A DNA stretch of 64,000 bases from NCBI GenBank assembly GCA_964291215.2, contig OZ219790.1:576001-640000 (forward strand), read 5' to 3'. The notes under the pieces were generated by a model. The model was not told the DNA's origin, ran no database searches, and saw only the letters and a program-made list of their open reading frames with translations. Positions within the stretch are counted from its first letter, which is position 1; the number at the start of each line of letters is the position of its first letter. This DNA comes from Alphaproteobacteria bacterium. GTDB taxonomy: Bacteria > Pseudomonadota > Alphaproteobacteria > MPNO01 > UBA830. Of this stretch, positions 4 through 23,719 are shown one piece after another. The translations under genes were made by a program, and so were the position numbers.

Positions 4-3000
4 GCTTCAATGAGGCCGGGGCGCAAGCGCCCCGGATACTCACCCATTTCCTCGAATATCCGATTGAGCCAGCCGCGCGCTTCAATGAGGCCGGGGCGCA
101 AGCGCCCCGGATACGCCGAGACTGGCGTGGTTGATTGGGGGGCGACAAAATGCTTCAATGAGGCCGGGGCGCAAGCGCCCCGGATACGGAAGAGGCGCTT
201 GCTGCATTCCAGGAGTTGTCGGTGCTTCAATGAGGCCGGGGCGCAAGCGCCCCGGATACTCTGTAATGGCGCACTCGGGTTGTCCGAAGAGGCGCCGCTT
301 CAATGAGGCCGGGGCGCAAGCGCCCCGGATACCGCGAGTTCGCCTTCAAGACCCCCGTCGCCGCCATGCTTCAATGAGGCCGGGGCGCAAGCGCCCCGGA
401 TACGTCGGATTCTCAGTGGACCGCGGCCCACGAGCTCTACGGGCTTCAATGAGGCCGGGGCGCAAGCGCCCCGGATACAGCGATGACAGACCGCAGTGAC
501 GCCGTGCGGCGCGAGCTTCAATGAGGCCGGGGCGCAAGCGCCCCGGATACGCAATAGTCGGAAAGCGATGATCCAGGCCAAAATGCTTCAATGAGGCCGG
601 GGCGCAAGCGCCCCGGATACCGCGCGCGTTATGCGGATCAGCCAAATTCCGACCCGAGCTTCAATGAGGCCGGGGCGCAAGCGCCCCGGATACAGGTCGA
701 AGCTGCGGAAGATGCTGTTGAGGCCGCCGAGGCTTCAATGAGGCCGGGGCGCAAGCGCCCCGGATACCCGCATTTTCGGTCCATTGTGCCCCGTGGGAGC
801 CCGGGGCTTCAATGAGGCCGGGGCGCAAGCGCCCCGGATACCTGCTTGATGCGGCGATATCGGAGGAAAAAAGCTATGCTTCAATGAGGCCGGGGCGCAA
901 GCGCCCCGGATACGTGGCGCGGGATTGCGCCGTTCGATGATTCAAATAGCTTCAATGAGGCCGGGGCGCAAGCGCCCCGGATACTCGCCCGCTCCGCATG
1001 CTCGATGGAACGAGGCATCCAGCTTCAATGAGGCCGGGGCGCAAGCGCCCCGGATACCGGGCTGGAACATCGCGGCGGGCAAAGAACTCGCATAGCTTCA
1101 ATGAGGCCGGGGCGCAAGCGCCCCGGATACACGCCGACGAAGGTGTTCGACGATCTTTATCTGGCGCTTCAATGAGGCCGGGGCGCAAGCGCCCCGGATA
1201 CATAGCGCGTGAGACCAGCCTGAATCCGCTCTTCAAGCTTCAATGAGGCCGGGGCGCAAGCGCCCCGGATACCTGGCAACGCCTTCAAGACTGGCAAGAT
1301 TGGTCATGTGCTTCAATGAGGCCGGGGCGCAAGCGCCCCGGATACACTGGGAGATCAGAGGTGGCTAAGACGGCCTACGGGCTGCTTCAATGAGGCCGGG
1401 GCGCAAGCGCCCCGGATACGACGCCCACCACACTGGAGATTCTGACGGGTGCGCGCGCTTCAATGAGGCCGGGGCGCAAGCGCCCCGGATACCACTCGAA
1501 GCGCGACGACGCGCAATACGAGGCGCTGCTTCAATGAGGCCGGGGCGCAAGCGCCCCGGATACCGCGATACATTCAGGGCCGCGGGCTCCTGGCGATGGC
1601 GCTTCAATGAGGCCGGGGCGCAAGCGCCCCGGATACCCAGGGCGCACAGGGGCAAAATGGGAGCGGCTGAACTCGCTTCAATGAGGCCGGGGCGCAAGCG
1701 CCCCGGATACGACGGAATACTCGTAGCCGCTCTCATCAGCCAGCCGTGCGCTTCAATGAGGCCGGGGCGCAAGCGCCCCGGATACTGAGTTCCGCGGGTT
1801 TGGGAAACGGTGGGGCCATCTGCTTCAATGAGGCCGGGGCGCAAGCGCCCCGGATACCTCGCCCGGGTTGCCAGCGATCAGCGCGGCAAGGGGCTTCAAT
1901 GAGGCCGGGGCGCAAGCGCCCCGGATACTCGAATTGCACACTCGCGATCAGCGTCCCGACGGGCGCTTCAATGAGGCCGGGGCGCAAGCGCCCCGGATAC
2001 GCCGGCGCCGTACGCGCCGTCCTCGATAACATCGGTGCTTCAATGAGGCCGGGGCGCAAGCGCCCCGGATACCACTGCCATTCGTCCCCGCAGATTCTAC
2101 CGATCCTAGGCTTCAATGAGGCCGGGGCGCAAGCGCCCCGGATACTGCTTCCTGGTCGGCGAGCAGCGCGTTTGCCTGACGCTGCTTCAATGAGGCCGGG
2201 GCGCAAGCGCCCCGGATACCCCTGGGCTCCATTTGGAGCTCCCTAACATCTTTGGAGAAGCTTCAATGAGGCCGGGGCGCAAGCGCCCCGGATACGCATC
2301 TTCCTCAGCTTCAACCTTCCATCCGTCGACTCGCTTCAATGAGGCCGGGGCGCAAGCGCCCCGGATACAGGTTCGCAATCTCAAGGCCGACTTTGAGGCT
2401 GCCAAGCTTCAATGAGGCCGGGGCGCAAGCGCCCCGGATACTGCGTCTCGTGCGCCCGGGTTGCCATGGCGTCGTCGCTTCAATGAGGCCGGGGCGCAAG
2501 CGCCCCGGATACCGAGAAATCGGCGATAGTCGCGGCCACGCAGGCCATTGCTTCAATGAGGCCGGGGCGCAAGCGCCCCGGATACTTTTGCGCTGGTCGC
2601 GCTCGAGGAAGTGTAAGGCAGGGCTTCAATGAGGCCGGGGCGCAAGCGCCCCGGATACTCATGCGCAGCTGAGCCGGGAAATCGGCGTGGTGGCGCTTCA
2701 ATGAGGCCGGGGCGCAAGCGCCCCGGATACAAGGTGGTCAACGGCCTCCAGGGCACCGGGTCCGTGGCTTCAATGAGGCCGGGGCGCAAGCGCCCCGGAT
2801 ACCTCGCATCGTTTGCCGGCGGAATCTCGGGCAAGCGCTTGCTTCAATGAGGCCGGGGCGCAAGCGCCCCGGATACCCAATCTCCTAGGTTGAGGGATCT
2901 AGTCATCGATCAGGCTTCAATGAGGCCGGGGCGCAAGCGCCCCGGATACGAGCGTGGCGAACGTGCGCTACACGGTGGTCGGTTCCGGGCTTCAATGAGG

Positions 3001-5216
3001 CCGGGGCGCAAGCGCCCCGGATACAGGGCAGCATAGACATTATTCGGGCCCATAGCGGCCAGCTTCAATGAGGCCGGGGCGCAAGCGCCCCGGATACTAG
3101 CAAAAGTGGAACGCGAGATCGAGATCGGCAACAGAGCTTCAATGAGGCCGGGGCGCAAGCGCCCCGGATACTCACAACCAAGGACAACGCCCCGTCGGCG
3201 CTGTTTCCGCTTCAATGAGGCCGGGGCGCAAGCGCCCCGGATACGAACTGGTGTTCGCCAGGGCGCACCTCAGACAGACAAAGCTTCAATGAGGCCGGGG
3301 CGCAAGCGCCCCGGATACCACGCCTCCCAGCGTGGATCGTCCTCGCGAATCTGAGCTTCAATGAGGCCGGGGCGCAAGCGCCCCGGATACGCGGACGATC
3401 AGCAGGATACTTCGCAAGACGTCGACGCTTCAATGAGGCCGGGGCGCAAGCGCCCCGGATACAGTGCCTGGGAGCGCGAGACTACGTTTACCATCCGGCT
3501 TCAATGAGGCCGGGGCGCAAGCGCCCCGGATACTCAGATATGCACGCGTCTTCTCATCGCTGGCGGCATAGCTTCAATGAGGCCGGGGCGCAAGCGCCCC
3601 GGATACCTCGTCGTGTCGCTGGTGCCCTCGCCCTCCGCGATGGCTTCAATGAGGCCGGGGCGCAAGCGCCCCGGATACCAGCACGCGATGCCCACGCCGC
3701 TGTTCACATCGCCGCGCTTCAATGAGGCCGGGGCGCAAGCGCCCCGGATACCTGGACCATGATGTCGACGATCCTGAGCCCGATATCCCGCTTCAATGAG
3801 GCCGGGGCGCAAGCGCCCCGGATACCCGCGTGCATCGCCGGATACGTGTTACAGCTAGGCTGCAGCTTCAATGAGGCCGGGGCGCAAGCGCCCCGGATAC
3901 CGCGATGGTCGCGATGCTGACGGCTCTCGAGGATCGTCGCTTCAATGAGGCCGGGGCGCAAGCGCCCCGGATACCGGCAAAGTCATCAAGAACGAACCCA
4001 CCGCCAGCCTGCTTCAATGAGGCCGGGGCGCAAGCGCCCCGGATACTCGAACCCCGATAATGCCACAGGCCAATTCGGTACCGTGCTTCAATGAGGCCGG
4101 GGCGCAAGCGCCCCGGATACATCAAATGAACGACACCACCGCCTTCAGTCACTACTCGCTTCAATGAGGCCGGGGCGCAAGCGCCCCGGATACGATCTGC
4201 AGGGCCGAAGCCGGGCGCTCGCCAACCTGATGCTTCAATGAGGCCGGGGCGCAAGCGCCCCGGATACTCGATTACGGCGGCCATCGCGCTTCGATCCCCT
4301 GGTCGCTTCAATGAGGCCGGGGCGCAAGCGCCCCGGATACCTGGCTGCAGCGTTCGGCGGCTCGGGCGGCGGTCCGCTTCAATGAGGCCGGGGCGCAAGC
4401 GCCCCGGATACCCGTCTGTGGCAGACCAACTTCGGGGTTTCGCCGGAGCTTCAATGAGGCCGGGGCGCAAGCGCCCCGGATACACCGCATCTCCGGTTCT
4501 ATCGATGGCGCGATCGCGAGCTTCAATGAGGCCGGGGCGCAAGCGCCCCGGATACTTCTCAGCGCAAATCCGGTACTCCGCATCCCTCAGCGCGCTTCAA
4601 TGAGGCCGGGGCGCAAGCGCCCCGGATACTAGCCGGATTGTCCGGCGGGAAGGCAGCAATGATAGCCGCTTCAATGAGGCCGGGGCGCAAGCGCCCCGGA
4701 TACTCGGCGAGATTCTCACTGAGATCAGCATCGCGGCCAAGGCTTCAATGAGGCCGGGGCGCAAGCGCCCCGGATACCGCCGATCGAGGGCGTGGAGAAA
4801 ATCTGGGTCGACGGCGCTTCAATGAGGCCGGGGCGCAAGCGCCCCGGATACCACCCGAGGAGACGCACAGCGGCCAGAGGATTCGACGGCTTCAATGAGG
4901 CCGGGGCGCAAGCGCCCCGGATACCCCAAATTCGAGGCATGGTTGTCCCTCCTATACGAGTTGCTTCAATGAGGCCGGGGCGCAAGCGCCCCGGATACTA
5001 CGCGGGCGGCCCCAAAAATGAGGCCCTTTCGCCAAGCTTCAATGAGGCCGGGGCGCAAGCGCCCCGGATACTCCGTATTGTTTACGAGGCCATCCCGACG
5101 CGCGCCGGGCTTCAATGAGGCCGGGGCGCAAGCGCCCCGGATACCCACTACGTACCCAGCGCGTTCGTCGACATCTACGAGCTTCAATGAGGCCGGGGCG
5201 CAAGCGCCCCGGATAC
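4..5216 (-). CRISPR. CRISPR array, 72 repeats / 71 complete spacers (34-40 nt); repeat GTATCCGGGGCGCTTGCGCCCCGGCCTCATTGAAGC on the minus strand; probably continues beyond the window start
   Basis: 36-bp + strand unit GCTTCAATGAGGCCGGGGCGCAAGCGCCCCGGATAC counted from 4 to 5181 at 70-76 bp periods. Internal palindrome CCGGGGCGC/GCGCCCCGG. The ATTGAAGC 3' end and adjacent cas2 indicate minus-strand transcription. Confidence 0.99.
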
Positions 5217-5780: not shown

Positions 5781-7523
5781 TCATCGGGGAAGGTAGTGCG
5801 GATAGTCGGGCAATTCGCCCAACAAGTGGCGGCACAGCAGGCGCGCCTGGAGCAGCAAAAGCCGTCGCATGCTGAGCCGGTAGCCGAACAGCGGGTGAGT
5901 GGTTTCCTGAGAGAGCCGTCGCTCGAACGCGCCGACGAAACGACGGCGCCCTGCCGGTGTCAGAGACGTGCCCGTCGGAGCGCTCACGAAGTCCTCCGGC
6001 GAGACCTCGCCGGTGTTGACCACCGTTAGGACTACCGAATCTGCGATGATCGGCCGAAACGGCTCCATCACGTCGAGGGTAAGCGCAGGCTTTCCGTATC
6101 GGGGCGCATGGAAAAAGCCTCGATAGGGGTCAAGGCCAACTGTGGCGAGCGCGACGGTCAGGTGGCGCGTCAGCATGGCATATGCGAGCGACAGCATGGC
6201 ATTTACGGGATCGCTCGGAGGGCGCCGGTTGCGGGCGTCGAAACGGAACGGCGCCAGGCCATTTCCGGCCTCCGGCGATTCCCTGACGCCCGGCGGCACC
6301 AGCAGATCAGAAAATGCACGGAAGTATGTCGCTGCCGCGTCACCTTCCAGTCCGAGCAATGCACTCACCGCAGCTGCGCGTTTCGTCGACCTGCGGGCAG
6401 CGTTGAGCCGGTCCAGCACGGCCTTGCGCGGATCGCGATCACCGCGCCAGTTACGGCGCACAATGGTTCGCTGGTTCACGATCTTGGCGGCAACCAGATT
6501 TCGGGCAAAGGCCAGACAATAGGTCGAGTCGAAGCTGCGCTGATACTGCGCCGTTCTGACCTCCACATTTCGGTGGCCGATTCCGTGGGCGATGCCGCGA
6601 AACCAGCCGCCGTGACTGTGGAAGGCGACCGGGATTTCGCGGTCCATGAGTGCGGCAAGCGCGGGCGTTGTGATCGAGACATTCCCGAACAGCGCCACAT
6701 CGGACACGTCGTTCAGCCGCACCGTGGTGTCACCCTGCTCCCCGTCAGCGACCTTCAGAGTTTCGCCTTCTTTGGAGACCCGTGCCCTCTGCGACTGGAC
6801 GACCAGCGGCAGCGCCTCGTCCGCCCCGATGGCAATGGGGCGGGGCGCCAGGCCGGAGCCCCCGATCGCACGCACCTCGTCCGGCAGGCAAATAGACACG
6901 AGCGCGCAGCGTGGACATTTCGGGCTGTCGCTCAAGGGCGGCGGAATACGGCCGTGGGCCACCGTCAGGCGCAACCGGCTCACCGCCTCCCGCGCGGCGA
7001 GGCGGAGCTCATCGTCCAGGACAATCCGGACGCGCTCACGACTTTCAGCATACCAGACGGCGCCTTCGTTGACCTTGTAGCCGTGCTCTTCAAGCAGCAG
7101 CGCCTGAAGGCAGACCTGGATACGCTCCGGTTCGTAGACGCCCTTCGCCACATGGGGCCGCTTGCCGCGTTTGTAGTCGACCGGCGTAACCGCGCCGTTC
7201 TCGGCCTCGGCGATGTCGATCTTCGCGATCACACCGAGCTTGTCGGACGAAAGCGTCAGGGAGCGACTGACAACCTTGTTATCATCGGTTTCCAGAGCTT
7301 CGGGATCGGGCAGCGGTTTGTTGGGTCGGTCGACCCGAGTATGGACCCGCCGCCCGTCAACCGTGTCTCCGGTCTCCGACCATTCGGCCTGACCCCACAT
7401 AAGATAGGCGAGCCGCGGGCAATAGACGAACTCGTTCACCATCCTTGCCGGGACCAGCGGATGCTCGCCTGTTGCTGAAGGCGCGGGAAGATGGAGTTCG
7501 AGTTGTTGGAACGACAAAGGCAT
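5781..7523 (-). CDS. cas4-cas1: Cas4-Cas1 fusion (type I-G adaptation module)
   Basis: N-terminal Cas4: YCPRL, KIDIAE, PVDYKRG, QVCLQ, CPRC..C Fe-S cysteines. C-terminal Cas1: LLGLEGDAA, RRPPSDPVNAMLS, GFFH, LDVMEPFRP. Start set at ATG 7523. Confidence 0.96.
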   Translation of the reverse strand: MPLSFQQLELHLPAPSATGEHPLVPARMVNEFVYCPRLAYLMWGQAEWSETGDTVDGRRVHTRVDRPNKPLPDPEALETDDNKVVSRSLTLSSDKLGVIAKIDIAEAENGAVTPVDYKRGKRPHVAKGVYEPERIQVCLQALLLEEHGYKVNEGAVWYAESRERVRIVLDDELRLAAREAVSRLRLTVAHGRIPPPLSDSPKCPRCALVSICLPDEVRAIGGSGLAPRPIAIGADEALPLVVQSQRARVSKEGETLKVADGEQGDTTVRLNDVSDVALFGNVSITTPALAALMDREIPVAFHSHGGWFRGIAHGIGHRNVEVRTAQYQRSFDSTYCLAFARNLVAAKIVNQRTIVRRNWRGDRDPRKAVLDRLNAARRSTKRAAAVSALLGLEGDAAATYFRAFSDLLVPPGVRESPEAGNGLAPFRFDARNRRPPSDPVNAMLSLAYAMLTRHLTVALATVGLDPYRGFFHAPRYGKPALTLDVMEPFRPIIADSVVLTVVNTGEVSPEDFVSAPTGTSLTPAGRRRFVGAFERRLSQETTHPLFGYRLSMRRLLLLQARLLCRHLLGELPDYPHYLPR

Positions 7524-7577
7524 GCATCCTGATTTAACGACAATCGTGCTGTGGCGTCGGCAGGTCTGTCTGTACGC

Positions 7578-7669
7578 CACTCAATGAGTCTGGTTCATCG
7601 TCGACCCGAAGTACCATGCGCACAAATTGCCACTGCATTACAGCCTCTACGCTCCAATAAGAGCTGGAT
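7578..7669 (-). CRISPR. Degenerate mini-array: partial repeat, 36-nt spacer, degenerate repeat
   Basis: 7578-7614 on minus matches the array repeat at 22/37 positions with one gap. 7651-7669 ends in ATTGGAGC versus ATTGAAGC. Exactly 36 nt separate the two. Confidence 0.55.
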
Positions 7670-8157
7670 GGGTGCAAGTCTGGTGGGCGATCGCAACCGC
7701 CGCTGCCCGGCCCTTTCGACCCGCGCAGCCCCGTCGTCAAGGCGCTCGATCCACGACCTCAAAACCTCGCAGCCCAGCGCGTTCACGTCCTCCTGAACAC
7801 GCTGCTCCATCTCCTCGAACGCCGCCGGGCAGGGCTCGACGCCAAGCGGCGCACGGCACACCGCCGCCAATCCCCTCAACGCTTCCAGAACACCAGCCGA
7901 CAAGCCCAGCAGATCGATAGACGAAGACAGCGCAGGCTGCGACACTGGCATGGGACCGCTCCCGAGGTTGACTTGAGCACTGCATCCTACCTCGCCTCTG
8001 GCGGAGCGGTCCCGCACAACGCACCGACAGCGCCCTACCGTGACAAAAGCAGACCCGCCAACCCCCGATTGTCATAAACCCCATAATCGGGAAGCCAAAA
8101 CAAAACCACAATCCTGACAAATCAACCGGTTGTGATCGCCACATCAGACTTGCACCC
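7670..8157 (-). mobile_element. Internally deleted ISKra4-like element (MITE-sized, 488 bp) with N-terminal transposase fragment
   Basis: Terminal inverted repeats GGGTGCAAGTCTG.TG(T)GGCGATC.CAACCG at both ends. Minus ORF fragment FEEMEQRVQEDVNALGCEVLRSWIERLD resembles ISKra4-type transposase N-termini. No clear target duplication. Confidence 0.75.
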
Positions 8158-8196
8158 GCCGCTGACAATCGCTTCTACGATCAGGGTGGTTAGCAA

Positions 8197-8226
8197 TTGA
8201 CAACCAACTATCAGAAAGCCTATCAT
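8197..8226 (+). promoter_or_regulatory. Candidate sigma70 promoter of the cas3-cmr operon
   Basis: TTGACA (8197-8202), 18-bp spacer, TATCAT (8221-8226), about 240 bp upstream of cas3. Confidence 0.55.
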
Positions 8227-8465
8227 GGCAAACGTTGTAAGGACAACATCAAAAAAGATGATAATCGTATGCGCATGACTGTCGCCCGTAAGGTTCTTCG
8301 GCTGCAAGCTGAACGGACCATCGTCCAAATCGACGACACTGCTCCTGACCGGCTTGGTTGGGCTGATAGGTCGTGTTCGGCTCTGGACACGGGCAGGTTG
8401 TCCCGGCCACAGCAGATCGGGAGTAAGCGCGTTCGCAGCAAGAACGGTTCAGGCTCGGACATGTG

Positions 8466-11299
8466 ATGCCGAAGGTCCATTTCGAAGACGCGTTCGAGGA
8501 GTTGACCGGACATCCGCCTTTTCCTTGGCAACAGAGATTATACGACAAGCATTTTGGGCGAGGTATGCTGCCCCCGGCGGTGGATATTCCCACAGGCTTG
8601 GGTAAAACCGCTATCATGGCGGTCTGGTTGCTGGCGCGGGCGGCAGGCGCACCCTTGCCCCGGCGCCTCGTCTATGTCGTCGACCGGCGGGCCGTGGTCG
8701 ATCAGGCAACCGAGTTCGCCGGGCAACTGAGGGAACGGCTGGGGGAGGACGAACGGCTTGGGCCGGTGCGATCCGCCCTCGGCCTCGGCAGCAAACGGTT
8801 GCCGATCTCCACCCTGCGCGGCCGGCACGCCGACAACCGGGAATGGATGGCTGATCCGGCGGCGCCGGCGATTGTCGTCGGCACCGTGGACATGGTAGGA
8901 TCGCGGCTACTGTTCGAAGGTTATGGTCTGTCCCGCCGGATGCGGCCCTTTGCGGCGGCGCTGCTTGGATGCGATGCCTTGGTGCTGCTGGACGAAGCGC
9001 ATCTTGTTCGCCCCTTCGAGCGCTTGCTCAAGACGATTGAAAAGGGGCGGCGGCGGGCGTTCGCGCAAGAGGCGGATGCGCAGGCGGGCGCGTTCGCCGG
9101 CCCTGCGGTCCACGATGGATTGCCGCCACCTTTCCATGTCCTGCCCCTGTCGGCCACACTGGGCCGCGAGTCCGATGGAAACCTGTTCCGCCTGAATGAC
9201 GATGATCGGAAGAACGGCACGGTCCGCGCCCGGTTGGAAGCACGCAAGAGATTGACAGTCGAGGACCTCCCGCCGGGTCTTAATCTCAATCAGGCACTTG
9301 TCGACCGGGCCTGGAACCTGATGGAGGCCGCTTGCGCAAACGCCGGACAGCCGCCTGCCGTGGCGGTCTACTGCGACCGCCGCACCGATGCCGGGAAGGT
9401 GGCGGACGATCTTCGCAAACGCGCCAGTCAAGAGCGGCCTCAGTCCGAAGTAATCCTCCTTGTTGGTGGCCGGCGGGTGCGTGAGCGGCACAAAGCCGCC
9501 GAAAAGTTGCAGGAACATGGCCTTGTCGGCGAAGCCAAAGACCTGCGCCGCACGCCCGTGTTCCTCGTCGCAACCTCCGCTGGCGAGGTCGGGGTCGATC
9601 TCGACGCCGATCACATGGTCTGCGACCTAGTGTCTTGGGAGCGTATGGTGCAGCGGCTCGGCCGGGTCAACCGGCGCGGTACGGGCGACGCGATGGTACG
9701 AGTGATCGACCAGGGCAAGCCGGACGAGAAGAAGGCGGGCGCGCTCGCCGTCGCCCGCCACGAGGCAGCGCGCAGTCTTCTTGATGCCCTGCCGCTGGGC
9801 GAGGCCGGCGAACGCCCGACCGGCCCCGGCGTCTTGGAGAACCTCGCCGCCGACCCGGCCCAACATGCACGAATCGCCGAAGCCACGACGCGAATGCCGC
9901 TTTACCCAGCGCTCACCCGCCCGCTGATCGATTCTTGGGCGATGACCGCGCTGGAACACCATGCCGGCCGGCCGGAAATCGGCCCGTGGCTGAGGGGTTG
10001 GGTGGAAGACAACGAGCCGCAAACCGCCGTGGTCTGGCGGCACCATCTGCCGCTGCACTTCCGGACGGACGGCGGCGCAGTGCAGGCGCAGGCGGAACAG
10101 GCGGTTCGGGCCTTCTTTGCCGCCGCACCGCCGCAGGCGGCGGAACTTCTGGAAACCGAGACGTCGCGAGTGGTTGATTGGCTCAAGAAGCGCGTGCGCA
10201 AGCAGTTGAAGGAATTGGATAGGGCGGCCGCGCGGGCGATCGAACCGTATCCCGCTCCCGTCGGCGACAGCGCGAACGACGAGGAAGAAACTGCCAGAGG
10301 CACGCGCCTTCTCGCGCCGCTGACCCGAAGCGGCCCCATCGCCTTTCTGGTCGACGCCGCCAACCGCCCGGCGGACGCTCTGAGCCTTGCGAAGATCGAC
10401 AGAATCCAGTCCCAGAACCTAAAAGCGCTACTTGCCGGCAAGCGGCTTGTGGTGGACGCGCGGTTCGGCGGAATCAGAAACGGCCTGCTGGACGATACGG
10501 CCAATGATTGTGCTTGTACGATTGAGGATAATTGGGGCAAGCCGGGCGATGATGGCGACGATCCAGAAGAGAATCCCTGGAACCTGAAGGTCGAGGTGTG
10601 TTCGGAAGATGCGCATAATTCCGACGGCTGGCAGGCGGTTCTGGAGGCGCCCTATTGCGTATCGGCGGAGGGCGAGACCTGGTCCCGGCTGATCATCTCG
10701 AAGCGCCGCGGCACCGGCGAGAGCGAGGACGCCCGGGCGATGGCACGCAAGGCCCAACGCCTTGACGAGCATCAGGAATGGGCGGAAAAGGAAGCCGCGC
10801 GTATCGCCGATGCGCTCGACCTCCCGGAGGCCGACAGGGCCATGCTGACCGCCGCTGCCCGCCATCACGACGACGGCAAGACGGCGAAACGCTGGCAGGA
10901 GGCCTTCAACGCGCCCCAAGACTGGCACGATGGTGGACCCTATGCCAAGACAACGGGGCCTTTCAATCGCCAGCGGCTGAACGGCTACCGGCACGAATTC
11001 AAGTCGGTGCTCGACGCCGAGAGGGTTGGCCTCGACGGCCTCGACCGTGGCGACCCGCGATTCGAACTGGCGCTGCACCTGATCGCCGCGCATCACGGCC
11101 GCGCCAGGCCCGGCATCGGCATCGAGGGCTACGACGAGGAGCCGCCGAGCGCGGCAGAACAAGCCGCGCGCGCGATTGCACTGCGCTTCGCGCGCCTGCA
11201 ACGGGAGTGGGGACCCTGGGGTCTCGCCTGGTGGGAGGCACTACTGCGCGCCGCCGACCAGGCGGCCTCGCGGCGGCTCGACGACGGAGAGGGGGACGC

Positions 11300-11303
<4 letters not shown>
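8466..11303 (+). CDS. cas3: Type I-G Cas3 helicase with C-terminal HD nuclease
   Basis: IPTGLGKT, DEAH, EVGVDLD, QRLGRVNRRG; C-terminal HHDDGK, RHE, AHHG, AADQAAS. Helicase-then-HD order is typical of I-G. Confidence 0.96.
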
Positions 11304-13218: not shown

Positions 13219-15435
13219 GTGGAGCGTGCGCTGCTCGTCGCCGTGAGGTTCCACGAGGGCCGCTACCACGGTGCCGGCGGCTGGCCGCCCGCACCGGCGC
13301 GGCTGTTCCAGGCGCTGCTGGCAGGGACGGCCCGGGGCGCTGCGGTGCCGGCCGAGACGCGGGAGGCGCTGGAGTGGCTGGAGCGGCTGCCGCACCCGGC
13401 GATCGCCGCCCCGTGCGTCAGGCAGGGGCAGAGCTACACCGGCTATGTGCCTAACAACGACCTCGATGCCGCGCTGTCCGGGAAGAACGCTCCCGATATG
13501 GAGAAGGCGGTGGCGTCGATCCGGATCGGCAAGACCGTCCATCCCGTCCTGTTCGATGCCGCCGCGCCGGTTCTCTACTGCTGGTCCTTCGACGGCGACG
13601 AGGCGCCAACGGCGGCGTTGTGCGAGGCGGCAAGGCAACTCTACCAGCTCGGCCGCGGCATCGACATGGCCTGGGCCGATGCCGCCGTGCTCGACCCGGA
13701 CGAGGCCCGAAGGCGGCTCTCCGATCACAGCGGCATCGTCTACCGCCCATCGGCCGGCGGCGGTGCGCACCTCCACCTGCTCTGCCCGCAGCCGGGAACG
13801 GAACGCAGCCTTGCGGCCCGCTTCGACGGAATGCGCACCCGCTTCCGCCGCAGCGGCAGCAACCGCAAGCCGGTTCGTGTTTTTGTGCAGCCGCCCAAGC
13901 CACTTCTTGTAAACGTCGCCTACAACGCGCAGCCGGTTCGCCTCGTCTTCGAGTTGCGCAGGCGCGATGCGCGAGGCGGCTTCGCCCCTCGCCGGCTGAG
14001 CGAAGCGGCGGCGCTCGTTGCCGAAGTACGCGACCGGGCCGCGCAACTTCTGTGCAAGGCGCTGCCGGCGCAGAGTGGTGATGTCGAGCGCTACCTGATC
14101 GGCCGGGGCGCGACAGAGGTGGACAAGGCGGCACGGGTGCGGATCGTGCCGCTCCCGTCGATCGGCCATGCCCATGCCGACATGGCGATCCGCCGCCTTG
14201 AGGTTCATGTGCCGCAATCCTGCCCGTTGCGGGCGGACGACCTCGCTTGGGCCTTCGCACAGGCCGCCTGGTCCGACCGCGACGGCATGGTGCGTACCGA
14301 GTTGCAGCGCGTCGAAGACGACACCATGGCGGCGCACTACGAGCGGCACGGGGGCTGCTGGCGCAGCGTGACGCCGCTGGCGCTCACGAGTGCCCGGCGG
14401 CGGCGCACCGATCCCGCGCGCACCAAAGAGAAACCCAAGGGCGCGGCGGAGCGTGCGCACGAGGAATCCCGCGCCGTTCACGCCGTGCGTCAGGCCCTGC
14501 GTCACGCCGGGGTCGGCAGCTTGCCGGCAGAGGTGCGTGTGCAGCGGGAGCCGTTCGACAGCCACGGCAAACGGGCCGAAGCCTTTGCCGCCGGTACGCG
14601 CTTTCCCGAGGGAGCGTTGTGGCATGTCTCGATAACCTTCGCCGAGCCGGTCGCCGGGCCGTTGTTGCTGGGCGATGGCCGTTATCTCGGTCTGGGCCTC
14701 ATGCGCCCGAGCGATCCGATTCCGGGGGTGCTGGCATTCGCGATCGCGTCCGGCCTGGCCGACAATGCCGACGCCGCCGAGGTCGCCCGCGCCGCGCGGC
14801 GCGCCATGCTGGCCCGGATGCAGGCAACCTTGCCGCGTGGCCAGCCGCTCCCGCGCTATGTGAGCGGCCACGAAGACGATGGCAACCCCGCCCGCGATGG
14901 CGCCCACCGCCATATCGCGATCGCGTTCGACCCGTCGCGGCGGTGCCTGCTCTTCATCGCGCCGAGCAGGCTGCAACGCGGCAGCGTGACGTGGCAGGAT
15001 ATCCGCAATGACCATGCTGCAGTCGAACGTGCGCTGGAAGGCATGACGGAGCTGCGAGCTGGTCGGTCGGGCCGCCTGACGCTCTCGCCCTTGGCGCTGG
15101 ATGCCGACAGCGATCCGTTGTTCGCGTCATCGCGGATGTGGGAAAACATGACCGACTATTGCGTGACCCGCCACCGGCGCAAGCTCACGGACGAGGAAGC
15201 GCTGCGCGCCGACGTTCTGGCCGAACTCCGGCGCATCAGTTGGCCAACGCCGGCAGCTGCAGAGGTCCTGTCGGCGAGACGCGGGCCACGCGGCGGGCTT
15301 TCGGGCCGTCTGCGGCTCACCTTCGCCGCGGCCCAAGAAGGGCCGCTCGTCATTGGGCGTACGTCGCACAAGGGTGGTGGCCTGTTCGGGCCATCGTGCG
15401 GCGCGGGGGCGGAACGCGCCGGGGATGTCGGATAA
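13219..15435 (+). CDS. csb2: Type I-G Csb2 (Cas5-Cas6 fusion), 738 aa, apparently with two Cas6-like modules
   Basis: GRYHG..WPPAPARLFQAL, YVPNND, LGRG; two glycine-rich loops, LLLGDGRYLGLGL and LVIGRTSHKGGGLF. Confidence 0.93.
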   Translation: MERALLVAVRFHEGRYHGAGGWPPAPARLFQALLAGTARGAAVPAETREALEWLERLPHPAIAAPCVRQGQSYTGYVPNNDLDAALSGKNAPDMEKAVASIRIGKTVHPVLFDAAAPVLYCWSFDGDEAPTAALCEAARQLYQLGRGIDMAWADAAVLDPDEARRRLSDHSGIVYRPSAGGGAHLHLLCPQPGTERSLAARFDGMRTRFRRSGSNRKPVRVFVQPPKPLLVNVAYNAQPVRLVFELRRRDARGGFAPRRLSEAAALVAEVRDRAAQLLCKALPAQSGDVERYLIGRGATEVDKAARVRIVPLPSIGHAHADMAIRRLEVHVPQSCPLRADDLAWAFAQAAWSDRDGMVRTELQRVEDDTMAAHYERHGGCWRSVTPLALTSARRRRTDPARTKEKPKGAAERAHEESRAVHAVRQALRHAGVGSLPAEVRVQREPFDSHGKRAEAFAAGTRFPEGALWHVSITFAEPVAGPLLLGDGRYLGLGLMRPSDPIPGVLAFAIASGLADNADAAEVARAARRAMLARMQATLPRGQPLPRYVSGHEDDGNPARDGAHRHIAIAFDPSRRCLLFIAPSRLQRGSVTWQDIRNDHAAVERALEGMTELRAGRSGRLTLSPLALDADSDPLFASSRMWENMTDYCVTRHRRKLTDEEALRADVLAELRRISWPTPAAAEVLSARRGPRGGLSGRLRLTFAAAQEGPLVIGRTSHKGGGLFGPSCGAGAERAGDVG

Positions 15436-17213
15436 TGGGTGGCGGTTGTAATGGCGAAGACAGCCGCACGGTCGTCGGGGCGCCGGACGAAACGGTGCGT
15501 GACCATGTGCTGCTAACAGTGCTCGGCACCGCACCGCACGCCGCGCGCTACCGTCTCGGAGACCGCGAGGTCGAGCAGCCGCTCGCTCCCCTCGCGCTCT
15601 ACGACCTGCTCGCGCAACCCGACCGGCCGGGGCGCGTCGCGGCGCTGTGCACACCGGAAGCGCAACGCGACAGCTGGCCAGCGCTCGAGACGGCGCTGGA
15701 CGGCCGATGCCGGACGGAACTGGTCCGGGTGTGCGGGGGCGAAACCCCGGAAGAGATCAATGCCTTCATGGCGCGGGTCGCGGATGCTGTTGGCGACAAG
15801 GCCGACATCACCGTTGACATTACCCACGGCCCCCGGCATTTCTCGTTCCTCACCTATCTGGTCGTGCTGTATGTTTCCGCGCTGCGCGGCGTGCGGGTGC
15901 GCGGCGCCTGGTACGGCCTGTTGCGCGAGAACGGATCCAGCCCGTTTCTCGATCTGCGCGGCCTTCTGGAACTGCCACGCTGGCTCCATGCGCTGCGGGC
16001 GCTCAACGATACCGGTAGCGCGCGACCGCTGGCCCACATCCTCCGTAGCGACTCGCGAAATCCGTCGGCGAAGAAGATGGCGAAAGATCTGGCACAACTG
16101 TCGGACGCCTACCTCTCCGGGATTCCGCTCGAATTGGGCTGGCAGGCGGACCTTGTGCGCAAGCAGCACATCAAGCCCCTGCGAAAGCTGATCTCGAACG
16201 ATTACCGCCTGCCGCTGGGCGACGAACTGGCCGGTCAGATCGACGATTTTCTTCGTACTCTCGCGCTGCCGGTTGCCGGCAACGGATGGAAGAGCAAAGT
16301 GCTGCTAGACGAGCGCGAATTGAAACGGCAAGTCCGGCATATCGACGACTTGCTGGATCGCGGGCATGTCGCCACCGCGCTCGGCCTGATGAGCGAATGG
16401 ACCGTCTCCTGGGTCGTTTGGGTACGAGGGCAGACGCGCGAGTGGCTCGACTATCGCGGCAAGCGGCGTGGCGCGGCCAACCTGCTCAACGCGATCGAGG
16501 CCGTCGGCGAGGACAAGGCGCTCCGGGAACATTTGGACGAAGAGCAGCAACGGCTGGGGACATATTGGGGGCAGCTGCGGGGGCTTCGCAACGGATACGC
16601 CCATCACGGCATGCGTCCGCAGGTTCTCGTCGGCAATCAGGCAGTCCGGAAAAATCTGGATCATGTCCGACGGTACTGGAGCAGGTTTCTGCGCGCCTGC
16701 CCTGCCATGCGATTGTCTCTCGGCGCACATCCGGACCAGCACATTCTGGTGAGCCCCATCGGAATGCGTCCGGGCGTACTGTTCAGCGCGCTGCAAGCGT
16801 ACAGAAGTGACGGGGACGGTCACGAGCCGGACCTGTGCCTCGTCATCTGCTCGCACGAGACGGCGGGACCGATCGCGGAAGCGACGGATCGCGCCGGGTA
16901 TCGGGGCACGGTCGAGAGGCTCTGGCTGAACGACCCTTACGGCGACCGCTCGGAGATCGAGCGATTGGCAAAGGCGGCGCGCCGCCACTTCGTGGGCGCC
17001 GGAGAGGTCGTCGTCAATGTCACCGGGGGAACAACGTTGATGGGCCTGGTTGCCGAGGCAGTCGCCGGCACCGCGCGCGGCCTGGCCTGTCCGGTGAGGC
17101 GATTCGGGCTGATCGACCGCAGGACGGCGGCGGAACAGGAGAAAGATCCTTGGCGGGCCGGAGAACCGTTCTGGCTCGATGAGCGGGAGGACGACGATGC
17201 CGACGGCGATTGA
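15435..17213 (+). CDS. csx1: Csx1/TM1812-family CARF-HEPN ribonuclease with extra C-terminal CARF-like domain
   Basis: LLTVLG and DITHG (DxTHG) CARF motifs; HEPN RNGYAH; C-terminal ILVSPIG...VVVNVTGGTTLM. Start overlaps csb2 stop (TAATG). Confidence 0.88.
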   Translation: MGGGCNGEDSRTVVGAPDETVRDHVLLTVLGTAPHAARYRLGDREVEQPLAPLALYDLLAQPDRPGRVAALCTPEAQRDSWPALETALDGRCRTELVRVCGGETPEEINAFMARVADAVGDKADITVDITHGPRHFSFLTYLVVLYVSALRGVRVRGAWYGLLRENGSSPFLDLRGLLELPRWLHALRALNDTGSARPLAHILRSDSRNPSAKKMAKDLAQLSDAYLSGIPLELGWQADLVRKQHIKPLRKLISNDYRLPLGDELAGQIDDFLRTLALPVAGNGWKSKVLLDERELKRQVRHIDDLLDRGHVATALGLMSEWTVSWVVWVRGQTREWLDYRGKRRGAANLLNAIEAVGEDKALREHLDEEQQRLGTYWGQLRGLRNGYAHHGMRPQVLVGNQAVRKNLDHVRRYWSRFLRACPAMRLSLGAHPDQHILVSPIGMRPGVLFSALQAYRSDGDGHEPDLCLVICSHETAGPIAEATDRAGYRGTVERLWLNDPYGDRSEIERLAKAARRHFVGAGEVVVNVTGGTTLMGLVAEAVAGTARGLACPVRRFGLIDRRTAAEQEKDPWRAGEPFWLDEREDDDADGD

Positions 17214-18381
17214 GGCGACATACCAAGCCGTCACCCCGCTTTTCTGCGCGGGTGCGGACAGAGTGCGACCGGAGCTTCGTTTGCCGAGCCTCAAGGGGGC
17301 ACTGCGCTTCTGGTGGCGGGCGCTGGCTTGGCCGCGATACGCCGGCGACCTCACCCAAATCCGGCAGCGCGAGGACAGCCTTTTCGGCAGTGCCGGCGGC
17401 GGCCAGTCCCGCGTGATCATGCGCCTCGAGCAAGCGATCCAAGAGCCGAAGGCCTGCGATACGGGTTCGGTGCTGACGGCGGCCGCTGACGACCGGGAGC
17501 CGGTCGGGGCCGGTGCACGCTATCTGGGCTATGGTGTCATGGAGGCGTTCCCCAGCGAGAAACGGGGCACGAAGGCCGGCCAGCTCATCCGCGGTTGCCT
17601 GCGCGCGTCGTTCGAATTCACCGTTCAACTGCGCTGCCGCAGCCTGTGCGAGGCGGAACTGGCGCTGCTTCGCAATGCGCTCGTCGCGCTCGGCACCCTC
17701 GGCGGCATGGGCGCGAAGAGCCGCAAGGGTTACGGCTCGCTGGTCCTCCGGTCGCTTCAAGTGAATGACAAGCGGTGCTGGAGTGCGCCGGAGTCCCTGG
17801 ACGATCTGCAAACGGCAATCGGGAAGCTGCGCGGCGGACAGGGGGCGGCCGGTCTCCCCGAATACACGGCCTTCTCGTCCGGCGCCCGCCATGTCCTGCT
17901 GTCCGGCGGCGGTGCGAAGCCGCTGCAACTACTCGACGGGATTGGTCGGGAGCTCGTCCGATACCGGAGTTGGGGCCGGAACGGGAAGATCTTGGAGGGA
18001 ATAGATTCGGAAAAGAACTTCAGGGACGACCACGACCTGATGAAGGGCGGGCGACCGGCGAAGCACCCGCGCCGCATCGCCTTCGGCCTGCCGCACAATT
18101 ACGGCAAAAGGCAAGTCGTTCCAGGAGGGGGACCGCTCGACCGGCGCGCCAGCCCGCTGTTCATCCACATCCACGAATGCGGCGGCGCGCCGGTTGCGGT
18201 CCTGTCGTTCCTGCCGACCCGATTCCTGCCGCCAGGGACGACCATCTTGGTCGACCGCACAGAGGTTCGGATGACGCCGGAGCAGGAACTCTATCGCCCG
18301 ATCCATCGCTTCCTTGACCGCCTTCTCGACAGGAACAGGCGCAAGGAACCGTTCGACGAAGCCATCGAGGTACGGTCGTGA
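17197..18381 (+). CDS. cmr1: Type III-B RAMP Cmr1
   Basis: VTPLFCAGAD, SLKGALRFWWRA, LFGS, GGMGAKSRKGYG, AFGLP, RRASPL. Confidence 0.95.
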   Translation: MPTAIEATYQAVTPLFCAGADRVRPELRLPSLKGALRFWWRALAWPRYAGDLTQIRQREDSLFGSAGGGQSRVIMRLEQAIQEPKACDTGSVLTAAADDREPVGAGARYLGYGVMEAFPSEKRGTKAGQLIRGCLRASFEFTVQLRCRSLCEAELALLRNALVALGTLGGMGAKSRKGYGSLVLRSLQVNDKRCWSAPESLDDLQTAIGKLRGGQGAAGLPEYTAFSSGARHVLLSGGGAKPLQLLDGIGRELVRYRSWGRNGKILEGIDSEKNFRDDHDLMKGGRPAKHPRRIAFGLPHNYGKRQVVPGGGPLDRRASPLFIHIHECGGAPVAVLSFLPTRFLPPGTTILVDRTEVRMTPEQELYRPIHRFLDRLLDRNRRKEPFDEAIEVRS

Positions 18382-20276
18382 CGCTGCGCCTCGACATCGC
18401 TATCGGTCCGGTGCAGGGCTTCGTCATCCAGTCGCGGCGCACCCGCGACCTGTGGGGCAGTTCGTATCTTCTCTCGTTCCTCGCGGGGCACGCGATGCAT
18501 GGTGCGGAGAAGGCCGGCGGCCGTGTCGTCCGCCCGGTCGTCAAGGACGATCCGCTTTACCGCTGGACAGGGGGCGACAGGACCGGCGCGCCACCCGATA
18601 TCGGCTCGCTGCCGAACCGCTTCGCGATCGATGTCGAAGCGGAAGCCGAACCCGTCGCCCGTGCCGCCGTTGCAGCCCTCCGAGGGGCGTGGACGCGGGT
18701 CTGCGACGCCGTGTGGGTGAAATTCATTGCGGAGGCTTGCGAACATGGCGCCGGCACGCGGGCGATCTGGGACCGTCAGGTCGCCACTTTCTGGGAAGTG
18801 GCATGGTGCGCCGGGCCTGCCGAGGCCGGCCTTCTCGCCCGGCGCAAGCATTGGCGGAGCCACCTTCCGCCAACCGAACCGGGCGACAAATGCACGGTCA
18901 TGCACGACCTGCAGGAGATTTCGGGTTATGTGCGTTCGACTGGCCGGGCCGACACGCAGGACTGCTTCTGGAGGCATCTGCGCGATCTCGTCGGTGCGCT
19001 GGACCTGAGGGAGAATGAAAGGCTGTGCGCCGTCGCCCTGATCAAGCGTCTGCTCCCGCGCGTCGCCGAAGACGCGCTGGGGTGGAAGGTGGAGCGGTCG
19101 CGCTGGCCGTCGACGGTCCATATCGCCGCCCGGCCGTGGCTCCACCAGGTGGAAAACTGTGCGCCGGACCTGGCGCGCGACTATGCCGAGCAGGTCACGC
19201 AGTTCGCACCGTCCGGCGTTCTGTCCGAACGCTGGCCGGATCGGGAGCGTTCAGCTGCCGGCGACTTTTCTCGCCTCGACGCCAACTGGTTTCACCCGGA
19301 AGCGATTGAGAGCGAGCAGCTATGCCCGCTCAATGCCCATGCGGTGGACGGCACGCGCGCTGCTCTTGCCGGGAAGTTGAAGGCAATCTGCTGTGCCGAG
19401 GGGCGGGACGGGCGGCGCCTCGGGCCGCCGTCCTCCTTCTACGCCCTGCTTCTCGCTGACGGCGACCGGCTGGGCAGGCTGGTGGGCGAGGCCGACGGCG
19501 AACAGGTCGGCCGGGCGCTGGCGACTTTTATGGAGCAAGCACCGAAAATCGTGTGCAAGAATGGCGGCCAAACCGTGTATGCCGGGGGTGACGATGTGCT
19601 GGCTATGCTGCCGGTCCCCGGTGCGTTGCCATGCGCCGAAGCGTTGGCCGAATGCTATCGCTCGGCCTTCGGCCACCGGGTGGGAGCGACCCTTTCGGCC
19701 TCGGTCACTTTCGTGCATATCCGCTATCCGCTCAGCGGCGCGCTGCGCGACGCCCATCGACTGCTCGACGACATCGCCAAGCAAAGTAACGGTCGCGACT
19801 CGCTGGCGGTCGGAGTCCTCAAGTCCGGCGGGCTGAATTCCCAATGGGTCACGACATGGCGCCGACAGAACTCTGACGGGTGCGCCGAACCGTCCACAGA
19901 ACTTATCCGGGCGCTGGCGGACCGTCTCGAAAGCGACGCGCCGGAAGCAGATCTGTCGTCCGGTTTGCTCTATCGCCTCCGCGAACTCCTCGTCAGGCTC
20001 GGCGGATGGAACTCTTGGCGCCCCGGCACCTGGGGAACAATACCCGAGGATATCGATCTCACGGCTTTCCTGCGCACCGAAATCGGCCACAGCCTGGCCG
20101 TGAGACGTGGCGAGAGCGCCGCAGCGCCGGCGGCGGAGATGGCCGGTCTTGTCGTGTGCCTGTTGCAGCGCGTGCCCGCCGATGGTCAGGGAGGCGAGAC
20201 GACCGAGATCGGGGTCGATGCGCTCCTCCTCGCCCGCTTCCTCGCCGGGGGCGGCCATGGCGAGCGCGAAGCATGA
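18378..20276 (+). CDS. cas10: Type III-B Cas10 (Cmr2); no HD domain, intact cyclase motif
   Basis: IGPVQGFVIQSRRTRDLWGSSYLLS begins right at the N-terminus; LADGDRLG; YAGGDD. Confidence 0.96.
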   Translation: MTLRLDIAIGPVQGFVIQSRRTRDLWGSSYLLSFLAGHAMHGAEKAGGRVVRPVVKDDPLYRWTGGDRTGAPPDIGSLPNRFAIDVEAEAEPVARAAVAALRGAWTRVCDAVWVKFIAEACEHGAGTRAIWDRQVATFWEVAWCAGPAEAGLLARRKHWRSHLPPTEPGDKCTVMHDLQEISGYVRSTGRADTQDCFWRHLRDLVGALDLRENERLCAVALIKRLLPRVAEDALGWKVERSRWPSTVHIAARPWLHQVENCAPDLARDYAEQVTQFAPSGVLSERWPDRERSAAGDFSRLDANWFHPEAIESEQLCPLNAHAVDGTRAALAGKLKAICCAEGRDGRRLGPPSSFYALLLADGDRLGRLVGEADGEQVGRALATFMEQAPKIVCKNGGQTVYAGGDDVLAMLPVPGALPCAEALAECYRSAFGHRVGATLSASVTFVHIRYPLSGALRDAHRLLDDIAKQSNGRDSLAVGVLKSGGLNSQWVTTWRRQNSDGCAEPSTELIRALADRLESDAPEADLSSGLLYRLRELLVRLGGWNSWRPGTWGTIPEDIDLTAFLRTEIGHSLAVRRGESAAAPAAEMAGLVVCLLQRVPADGQGGETTEIGVDALLLARFLAGGGHGEREA

Positions 20277-21394
20277 TCGGCGTCCATCTCGATCCGGTGG
20301 ACACATGGTTCTTCCGCGGCGGCACGCCGTTCGCGAGCGATGCGGCGCCGCAGGACGATGTGGAAAGCCTGTTCCCACCGCACCCGGCGACGACCGCCGG
20401 CGCCCTGCGGGCGGCGCTGGCGCTGGCCCGGGGCTGGGACGGCCGCGGCCGGTGGCACAAATCGTTCGACGATGTTCTCGGCAACGGTCCGGAAAACCCC
20501 GGCAGGCTTTCCTTCGACGGGCCGTTTCTCCTGCGGTGCGGGAAGCCGCTGTTCCGTTCCCCCCGCCATCTGCTCGGCGTCAGGGAAGCGAACGGATGGC
20601 AGCCGTATGCACTGCTCCGGCCGGGGCCGCCGGTTCGCTGCGACCTCGGCAAGGCGATTCGCCTCCCCGACCTGCCCGAAGGAAGCAAGACAGGCGCAAA
20701 GCTTCAGGCCGGCGACCGGGAATGGCTCACGCTGGAAGGTCTGACCTCCGTCTTGCGGGGCGCGGTCCCGGAAGCGAGCGAGATCGTGGAGGACAAGGCG
20801 CTATGGTCGGCCGAGGAACGCATCGGCCTTGCGCGCGACAGGGACACCCGCAGCGCGAAGGAAGGCATGCTCTACAGCACCCGCCATGTGCGTCCCGGAC
20901 GCGGCGTTTCCCTCGGCATGCGCATTGCTGGCCTGCCTGCGGACTGGCCTCGGCCATTCGATCGGCTGGTTCCCCTGGGCGGTGAGAACCGGGTGGCGCA
21001 CTGCCGGGAATGGCAGGGCTGCGCGGGCCTCGATACGCTTCCGGTGCCGGGCGGACCGAGAGGACAGGCGGTGCTGGTGGCCTTGACGCCGCTCGACCTG
21101 GAAGAAGCGGTCGTTCGTGGCGAACGCCCGCTCGACGCGCCGAACGGCACCAGGATCGTCTCGGCCTGCCTGGACCGCCCGCAGCGCATCGGCGGCTGGG
21201 ATTCGCTGGCGCGCCGCCCGCTGCCGCTCCGCAGCGTGCTGGCGCCGGGCAGTGTGCTGTTCTGCGAAATACCGGAAAACGCACGGGAGGCCGGCACCGG
21301 CGGCGGGATTCTGCGCCTCGGGGCGCGGACGACCTGGGGTTTCGGCCTCGTCGCGGCCGGCGTCTGCCCTAAGGATCGGGAGGAAGAGGCATGA
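20273..21394 (+). CDS. cmr3: Type III-B Cmr3
   Basis: LDPVDTWFFRGGTPF, FPPHP.T.AGA, ERIGL, LGGENR, GGWD, PGSV, WGFG. Confidence 0.94.
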   Translation: MIGVHLDPVDTWFFRGGTPFASDAAPQDDVESLFPPHPATTAGALRAALALARGWDGRGRWHKSFDDVLGNGPENPGRLSFDGPFLLRCGKPLFRSPRHLLGVREANGWQPYALLRPGPPVRCDLGKAIRLPDLPEGSKTGAKLQAGDREWLTLEGLTSVLRGAVPEASEIVEDKALWSAEERIGLARDRDTRSAKEGMLYSTRHVRPGRGVSLGMRIAGLPADWPRPFDRLVPLGGENRVAHCREWQGCAGLDTLPVPGGPRGQAVLVALTPLDLEEAVVRGERPLDAPNGTRIVSACLDRPQRIGGWDSLARRPLPLRSVLAPGSVLFCEIPENAREAGTGGGILRLGARTTWGFGLVAAGVCPKDREEEA

Positions 21395-22209
21395 ACGCAA
21401 CGATACTGGGCCTGCTGGCCGAAACCCCCATCCACCCCGGAAGCGGCCGCAGCATGGGGGTCGTCGACCTGCCCGTGGCCCGCGAGGCGGCGACCGACTA
21501 TCCGGTGCTCGTCGGCTCCGGCCTCAAGGGCGCGCTGCGCGACAAGGCCGGGAGGGCGGCGCTGGACACCCATCGCCATTTCGGCAGGCCCGACCATGCG
21601 GGCGAGCTTCTGGTCTCCGACGGGCGACTGCTGTTGCTGCCGGTGCGCAGCCTGACCGGACGCTATCGCTGGACGACCTGCCCGCACCTGATCGAACGCT
21701 TCGGCCGCGACCTTGCCCGCGCCGGCTTCGCGGCGCAACCGCAGGTTCCGGCAGTAGAACGCGATGCGGTGCTGGCGGGCGGCAGCAAGACGCTGTTTCT
21801 GGAAGAGCGGCAGTTCAGCATTGCCGGTGCGCCGCCGGCCGATCTTTTGGATGCCATCGGGCCGCTGCTGCGCCATCGGGAGACTCAGGCCCGCCTCGCC
21901 GCGCAGGTCGCCATCCTGCGTGACGACGATTTCGCCTGGTTCGCGCGCTACGGCCTCGCCATCCAGGCGCGCAACGTTCTCGACGACGGCACCAAGCAGA
22001 GCAGAGATCTGTGGTACGAGGAATCGCTCCCGCCGGATACGGTCATGTACGCCCTGGTCGCGGCGCGCGGCGAGTACGACGCGGGCGAGGCGCTCCGCGG
22101 GCTGTTCCCGGAAAACGACCCGTATCTGCAGGCCGGCGGCAACGAGACGGTAGGGCAGGGCTGGTTCGCCGTGCGCGTCCACGGCAGCGGCGAAGAGGGC
22201 ACTCAATGA
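21391..22209 (+). CDS. cmr4: Type III-B RAMP Cmr4
   Basis: TPIHPGSG...VDLPVARE (catalytic Asp position retained), SGLKGALR, LWYEESLP, GGNETVGQG. Confidence 0.96.
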   Translation: MNATILGLLAETPIHPGSGRSMGVVDLPVAREAATDYPVLVGSGLKGALRDKAGRAALDTHRHFGRPDHAGELLVSDGRLLLLPVRSLTGRYRWTTCPHLIERFGRDLARAGFAAQPQVPAVERDAVLAGGSKTLFLEERQFSIAGAPPADLLDAIGPLLRHRETQARLAAQVAILRDDDFAWFARYGLAIQARNVLDDGTKQSRDLWYEESLPPDTVMYALVAARGEYDAGEALRGLFPENDPYLQAGGNETVGQGWFAVRVHGSGEEGTQ

Positions 22210-22606
22210 GAAACCTTGAACAGCAGCGCGCCGCCTGCGCCCTCGAACGGGTCGCTGCGCTCGAAAACAAGTCCGACGAATTCAAGAAACGGTATCGCGC
22301 CTATGTGGACCGCCTCGGCCCCGCCATCATAATGAACGGTCTGGGGCAGGCGCTTGCGACCGAACGCGCCGCTGCGGGTTCAGACCCGAAGAATGACCGT
22401 CAAGCTGCGCACAAGACGCTCTATGACAATCTGCAGCGCTGGCTCTGCCGGAACGGCGGCGTCTACCTGCCCGGCGACCTGCTGAAGGCGATCGTGCAGT
22501 GCGACCAGCCAGACTATCTCCGCGCCCAGGCCGAGGCTCTGGCATGGCTCGAATGGCACAAGAAATGTTGCCGTGCGGCGTTGCCGTCCGCCCAAGGAGG
22601 AGGCGA

Positions 22607-22610
<4 letters not shown>
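22206..22610 (+). CDS. cmr5: Type III-B small subunit Cmr5
   Basis: MRNLEQQRA, LGPAIIMNGLGQALA, EALAWLEWHKK. Confidence 0.94.

Positions 22611-23719
<1,109 letters not shown>

Follow-up and report, generated by a model that had tools for sequence, protein, structure and literature searches.

The window, a stretch of 64,000 nucleotides from an alphaproteobacterial genome, carries a type I-G CRISPR–Cas locus that reads in two directions from one intergenic region. The minus-strand side holds the main CRISPR array (positions 4..5216, minus strand; 72 exact repeats in the window, 96 counting the part to its left), cas2 and a cas4g-cas1g fusion (5781..7523, minus strand; NF049935, E 9.5e-227). The divergent side begins with the first effector gene, cas3g (8463..11303, plus strand; TIGR02621, with DEAH and HD motifs present), followed by cas8g2, cas7g and csb2 (13219..15435, plus strand; TIGR02165), a Cas5/6 fusion with an open frame of 738 codons that is the predicted processing enzyme of the system. 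A TM1812-like gene and cmr1-6, a III-B module, come after csb2 in the same direction (15138-23719, plus strand). All promoters discussed here are predictions from consensus matches only. An intact sigma-70 promoter of the cas3g-cas8g-cas7g-csb2(-cmr) operon is predicted at 8197..8226 (plus strand; 11/12 consensus positions), and a second promoter, facing cas4g-cas1g and the mini-array described below, at 8258..8285 (minus strand; 9/12). Between the first of these and cas3g lies a 65-codon ORF (8269..8466, plus strand), whose stop overlaps the cas3g start. The PAM of type I-G has been reported as TTN (PMC6547450); comparison of 95 array spacers with their own genome and the fetched loci, as an empirical route to the PAM, gave no match.

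Within the intergenic region, on the minus strand, the 3' tail of a first pseudo-repeat (7651..7663), including an 8-nt 5' handle (7658-7651) that agrees with the array handle at 7/8 positions, is followed by a 36-nt pseudo-spacer, the putative former guide (7615..7650), and by a 37-nt second pseudo-repeat (7578..7614), 55 nt downstream of which cas4g-cas1g starts. A first-pass annotation of the sequence had placed a handle, a spacer of 36 nt and a repeat-like stretch here, in the orientation of the main array and with a spacer length within its range. All three elements were found in these places, the orientation is that of the array, whose spacers measure 34-40 nt, and alignment of the second pseudo-repeat to the 36-nt array repeat reproduced the claimed 22/37 matches with one gap. 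The proposed comparison with shuffled intergenic sequence gave a less even answer: taken alone, the second pseudo-repeat is marginal, its score being reached by 11 of 200 shuffled regions (p = 0.055), but the two-part unit is rarer, scores as good being found at 72 of the 12.3 million genome positions that lie off the array when the observed score itself is the threshold, or about 0.5% per region of such size. Rfam gave no real match at 7400-8600 (one snoRNA match at E 0.47), and the exact handle plus seed pattern was found in none of the metagenome contigs searched. Only one of 25 other genomes of the same family matched, there with just the cas4 part of the query, and contigs from sequencing runs X2-X5 do not cover the unit.

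The footprint of the first pseudo-repeat is split by a 488-bp insertion (7670..8157, minus strand), an internally deleted ISKra4-like element that consists of the 5' end of the IS and a second terminal repeat. It is bounded by 13-bp perfect terminal inverted repeats and shares ~84% identity with the 5' end of full-length copies, whose transposase matches the ISKra4-family model (NCBIfam NF033572) at E 7e-49, below the curated cut-off; it differs from a member of that family in its length and internal deletion, in carrying a transposase fragment only and in having no intact 8-bp duplication. Thus, of the features of an ISKra4-derived non-autonomous element, the terminal repeats and the homology to an autonomous IS are present, and a target-site duplication and multiple short copies are not, the 488-bp form being the sole copy found in the genome. 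Duplications of 8 bp were seen at two of four longer copies examined, and the insertion is probably old because its own is not intact. Both junctions are spanned, with zero differences, by contigs of run X1, which may be the source sample. The same genome also contains a second family of elements, ~570 bp long and present in several copies, whose terminal repeats are related (G000:C1:1511792-1512358; C2:493682-494248; C2:759780-760360).

A search with cas4g-cas1g returned 80 loci, and one of them, L002, from a Defluviicoccus MAG, supplies the insertion-free allele. Its cas4-cas1 is 94% identical to that of the window, it is the nearest row of the tree (on a branch that is not starred), and its intergenic region is that of the window minus the IS. 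The unit, which the first-pass annotation had suggested looking for in loci lacking the insertion, is there, with a spacer identical at 32/36 positions, a second repeat identical at 24/37 and the same handle, which is also that of locus L007. As far as sequence comparison goes, this orthology settles that the unit is real. The second repeat of L002 has a fold comparable to that of the array repeat (-15.8 versus -17.4 kcal/mol), and the first is without a canonical hairpin. The L002 spacer has a target ~80 nt upstream on the opposite strand, with a TTC PAM and 14/15 counted matches (mismatches at 6, 12 and 14). The PAM overlaps the -10 box of an 11/12 promoter that faces the divergent cas3g, a second promoter (10/12) faces the mini-array from the opposite side, and the target lies between the two. 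The insertion-free allele also corrects the claim that the element at 7670 cut an upstream repeat, since the first repeat of L002 is repeat-like only over its last 12-13 nt. What the insertion separated, as the aligned alleles indicate, is the 5', non-repeat-like portion of the footprint, now stranded at 8158..8180 (minus strand) and contiguous with the tail in L002, rather than a recognisable repeat. The insertion moves the upstream promoter from ~110 nt to 600 nt from the handle.

The window copy has been altered at several further points. At the orthologous target site (8225..8244, plus strand) the PAM position (8225-8227) is not TTN, and the protospacer (8228-8244) pairs with the window spacer at 9/15 counted positions, with mismatches at seed positions 2, 4 and 8; in tested CreA systems, a single seed substitution suffices to abolish repression. 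The same spacer fits the L002 target at 13/15 positions, which reads as a fossil of the old pairing. A proxy for the guide–target duplex falls from -17.3 in L002 to -9.2 in the window. The imperfect hairpin that had been described as kept is effectively gone (z = 0.16), the stem of the second pseudo-repeat, folded in the canonical register, reaching -2.9 kcal/mol; run X16 has a contig across 7423-7640 with L002-like bases at at least two of the stem positions. Against fourfold sites (72/336 changed relative to L002), the target region (9/19; p = 0.011, post hoc) and the second repeat (13/37; p = 0.038, post hoc) have changed faster and the spacer (4/36; p = 0.09) more slowly. Position 9 is altered in both spacer and target, with pairing there retained. 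Because the spacer is better kept and position 9 has changed on both sides, function may have lasted long or may persist. Judged by eye, the unit also looks worn in L001, L003, L005, L008, L011 and L023. In L011 and L023, TM1812-cmr1-cas10 is divergent from and adjoins cas4g-cas1g behind the same intergenic region with its worn unit, and L023 seems to retain a TTT target of ancestral-like form alongside a spacer that has drifted.

Units of this architecture are known. Liu et al. (bioRxiv 10.1101/2023.03.10.532045) describe CreR of types I-B, I-E and V-A as a unit between cas genes in which two degenerate repeats enclose a single spacer, the first repeat keeping the handle and the second the 3' part, with a partial, PAM-flanked match at an effector promoter and no toxin found. 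They also list creA-like elements next to effector promoters for I-U, as type I-G was formerly called. Mini-arrays are reported in 4% (0.04) of 235 I-G loci by Shmakov et al. (bioRxiv 10.1101/2023.03.03.530964; PMC10120712, Table 1). The unit is thus a CreR-type mini-array, of a kind already in print for I-G, and the window copy is a further member; the statement in the first-pass annotation that no such RNA had been described for type I-G does not hold against these two sources, whereas its assignment to the CreA/CreR type does, with the addition of the PAM-flanked promoter target in relatives that it had not found. As in CreR, the window has two repeat-derived elements around one spacer-length stretch, located between cas genes and off the array, and a handle kept in the first pseudo-repeat; the Csb2-bound hairpin in the second is missing, and because a cognate PAM with a seed match at the cas promoter is missing as well, we class the window copy as a decayed ortholog and not as a working CreR. 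The unit further differs from the CreR of Liu et al. in belonging to type I-G, for which the passages covered contain a prediction and no test, in its predicted processing by Csb2 and in heading the cas4g-cas1g operon. The mini-arrays of Shmakov et al. resemble it in being transcribed opposite to cas3, in targeting a cas promoter with sixth-position mismatches, and in having variable cargo genes and "empty" loci among their relatives; the portion of the text searched holds no I-G example, and the window copy appears too decayed to act. Our literature search, which covered mainly openly readable main text, returned neither an experimental I-G CreR nor a PBECR toxin under CreA control.

The association of such units with promoter targets extends across the I-G relatives. 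Pooling 129 loci with a cas3g N-terminus gave 106 distinct cas3g upstream regions, which were scored for the unit and for a TTN seed target that reaches p ≤ 0.02 in comparison with 200 shuffled spacers. Such a target accompanies seven of the 10 non-array units scoring at least 20 and three of the 89 control regions scoring below 15, counts in which related loci are not independent samples. Two of these three control regions (L109 and L122) resemble real units. Outside this comparison stand two true arrays and five rows scoring 15-20, the window among them, and L025 and L151 were scored over the whole locus rather than the upstream region. The good units that miss the threshold are L044, L054 and L121; L064, L001, L023 and L065 have no convincing target within their own loci. 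L064 has a well-kept two-repeat unit ~630 nt upstream of cas4g-cas1g on the opposite strand, in a locus of 8.3 kb. In L015 and L045, where the effector operons start elsewhere, the targets have TTT or TTA and 14 matches. Spacers vary between loci, and each fits its own promoter region; by eye, the site in several loci is not at the -10 but immediately 5' of a TTGAC-type hexamer.

Taken together, we consider it likely, at a probability of about three in four, that the unit is a decayed, probably inactive copy orthologous to a CreR-type mini-array, which in its intact form, as reconstructed from L002 and the relatives, would let the I-G Cascade repress its own effector promoter. In the intact circuit, transcription from the promoter ~110 nt upstream would place the mini-array at the 5' end of the cas4g-cas1g-cas2 mRNA, as its leader. 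Csb2, whose cut falls 4 nt past the hairpin that it binds and leaves an 8-nt handle (bioRxiv 2022.08.08.503147), would then bind and cut at the second repeat. Once loaded into Cas7g/Cas8g, the guide would base-pair along ~17 nt with the TTN-flanked site, which overlaps the divergent cas3g promoter at its -10 box and start; the same study finds the sixth base of each Cas7 step unpaired, giving a 5+1 periodicity, and a requirement of the I-G Cascade for Cas3 in stable DNA binding. The guide-bound complex would block cas3g transcription without cleavage, and with a site between two facing promoters, as in L002, both operons may be throttled. The window system likely runs without this brake, because TTN is absent, the seed is mismatched, the stem is broken and the IS stands between promoter and guide, and because the cas3g promoter and the genes behind it are intact; its cas operon would then be de-repressed. 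The earlier suggestion that the unit may now be inactive agrees with these lesions, but the insertion is not the sole one. The attribution of the RNA to the I-G/III-B locus in the first-pass annotation fits the I-G effector and not the III-B module. The genome of L002 is without a cas10 match, so the III-B module was gained in the window lineage or lost in that of L002. Use of the guide by III-B against an antisense leader complementary to the spacer was considered and rejected, 9/15 bases pairing in the window and the L002 genome, an incomplete MAG, giving no cas10 match.

Several other explanations have to be weighed. First, the guide might still be made, for instance from an IS promoter, and be retargeted to or weakly bound at the best remaining TTN site in the locus, within cas4g-cas1g (7131..7150, plus strand), or at another genomic site. 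The spacer and handle are well conserved, and the 7131-7150 site stands out against shuffled spacers (p = 0.010) and owes its TTC PAM and seven counted seed bases to an Ala-to-Val codon present in only 6 of 64 homologs examined. We nevertheless regard this site as probably due to chance and persistence of the guide as unlikely: sites with TTN and at least seven seed bases number 15 genome-wide, the hairpin that Csb2 requires is lost, and the IS fragment has no promoter consensus. Two of the 15 sites were inspected, this one and that with TTT and 10 seed bases at G000:C1:476201; the latter was rejected as a new promoter target, as it lies inside an AAA-ATPase ORF.

Second, the unit could be a former CreA antitoxin, paired with a toxin that is either encoded by the 65-codon ORF or consists of an RNA from the cas3g leader (8233-8466). 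The ORF sits directly behind the targeted promoter, and its length stays at 65-67 codons in L002, in L003 and in four database proteins, the N-terminal ~23 residues being conserved; the leader is identical to that of L002 at 172/199 positions, above fourfold sites (p = 0.003); and in L001 and L005, two loci with a decayed-looking unit, an early stop shortens the ORF. Yet it is intact in the window and L003 despite a decayed guide, which an active toxin should not allow, and its nonsynonymous and synonymous changes relative to L002 stand at 22:5. It is confined to this clade, has no family match, no similarity to the PBECR-like protein discussed below and no link to the leader ORF of L045, and we found neither a coding-selection signal nor toxin evidence for it. 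We consider this explanation very unlikely. Third, the main role of the second repeat might be to let Csb2 cut the cas4g-cas1g-cas2 mRNA within its 5' leader, a step that would tie adaptation to the effector and leave the spacer incidental. Its position suits this, no terminator-like site having been found in the 55 nt before the start codon; however, PAM-flanked matches with the 5+1 periodicity recur with different spacers, the units of L019, L041 and L089 lie away from cas4-cas1, and the window hairpin is lost, all of which makes the idea highly improbable. Finally, the unit might never have been regulatory, being a neutral remnant of an old array or a resemblance that arose by chance. The marginal score of the second repeat and the 72 equally good genome positions might speak for this reading, which is just as improbable given the positional orthology to an intact unit with a 14/15, PAM-flanked promoter target and the 7/10 versus 3/89 counts.

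In five relatives, the mini-array target lies directly upstream of a gene for a PBECR3-like, BECR-fold predicted RNase at the head of the I-G effector operon (L044:5285-5677, L019:3435-3878, L041:3702-4097, L015:4690-5043 and, broken, L007:5319-5674; all minus strand; L044 is the same as L086-L088, and L015 as L191). The protein, of ~130 residues, gives weak PBECR3/MuF_C matches (Pfam PBECR3 at E 0.18, below the cut-off) and an atlas similarity of 0.91 to PBECR3 clusters. Its structural model (pLDDT 87) has BrnT as the best fold match (Z 7.4, which is middling; rmsd 2.9 over 77 aligned residues), followed by CdiA, colicin D and RelE toxins. These lines agree and are consistent with a BECR-fold RNase, each being middling. 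After the gene comes a ~70-nt motif (L044:5200-5276, minus strand; also in L007, twice, and in L015, L019, L041 and L026, the last without the gene), which is 88-96% conserved versus 52-58% for the protein and is predicted to form a three-way junction. It shows no compensatory change (0/23 pairs), and Rfam gave no match in L044 5000-6000. All four loci with an intact RNase-like gene retain guide and target (in L044 at p = 0.04, with a position-2 mismatch), and loci without the gene are mixed; this co-retention is only suggestive of a linkage. In L109, a small HTH-like gene (722-940, plus strand) between the mini-array target and cas3g is another type of cargo.

The arrangement recalls CrePA/CreTA (bioRxiv 10.1101/2024.01.05.574328; PMC9458426), in that the targets of L019, L041, L044, L015 and L007 lie just upstream of a toxin-like gene heading the effector operon, and differs in that the gene encodes a PBECR-like predicted RNase and not KilA-C or an RNA toxin. 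Tentatively, then, the I-G systems of this clade might carry an undescribed kind of CRISPR-repressed toxin–antitoxin, in which the guide silences a phage-derived PBECR-like RNase gene that comes first in the cas operon and is followed by the conserved structured RNA motif. Its life cycle would run from toxin plus guide (L019, L041, L044, L015) through a broken toxin (L007) and a guide alone (L002, L042, L089, L180) to promoter escape and guide decay once addiction is gone (the window and the L001 group). The PBECR-like gene has no match in the genome of the window or in that of L002, and the apparent lack of a toxin gene of this type would explain why loss of the guide was tolerated.

The window thus offers what appears to be a natural loss-of-function allele beside an intact one, L002. 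It suggests that RNA-guided autorepression can be shed by an I-G system that has 96 repeats and whose cas genes are intact, and the relatives provide concrete guide–promoter pairs for CreR in type I-G. If the RNase-like gene is indeed a CRISPR-repressed toxin, it could act against phages that carry anti-CRISPRs.
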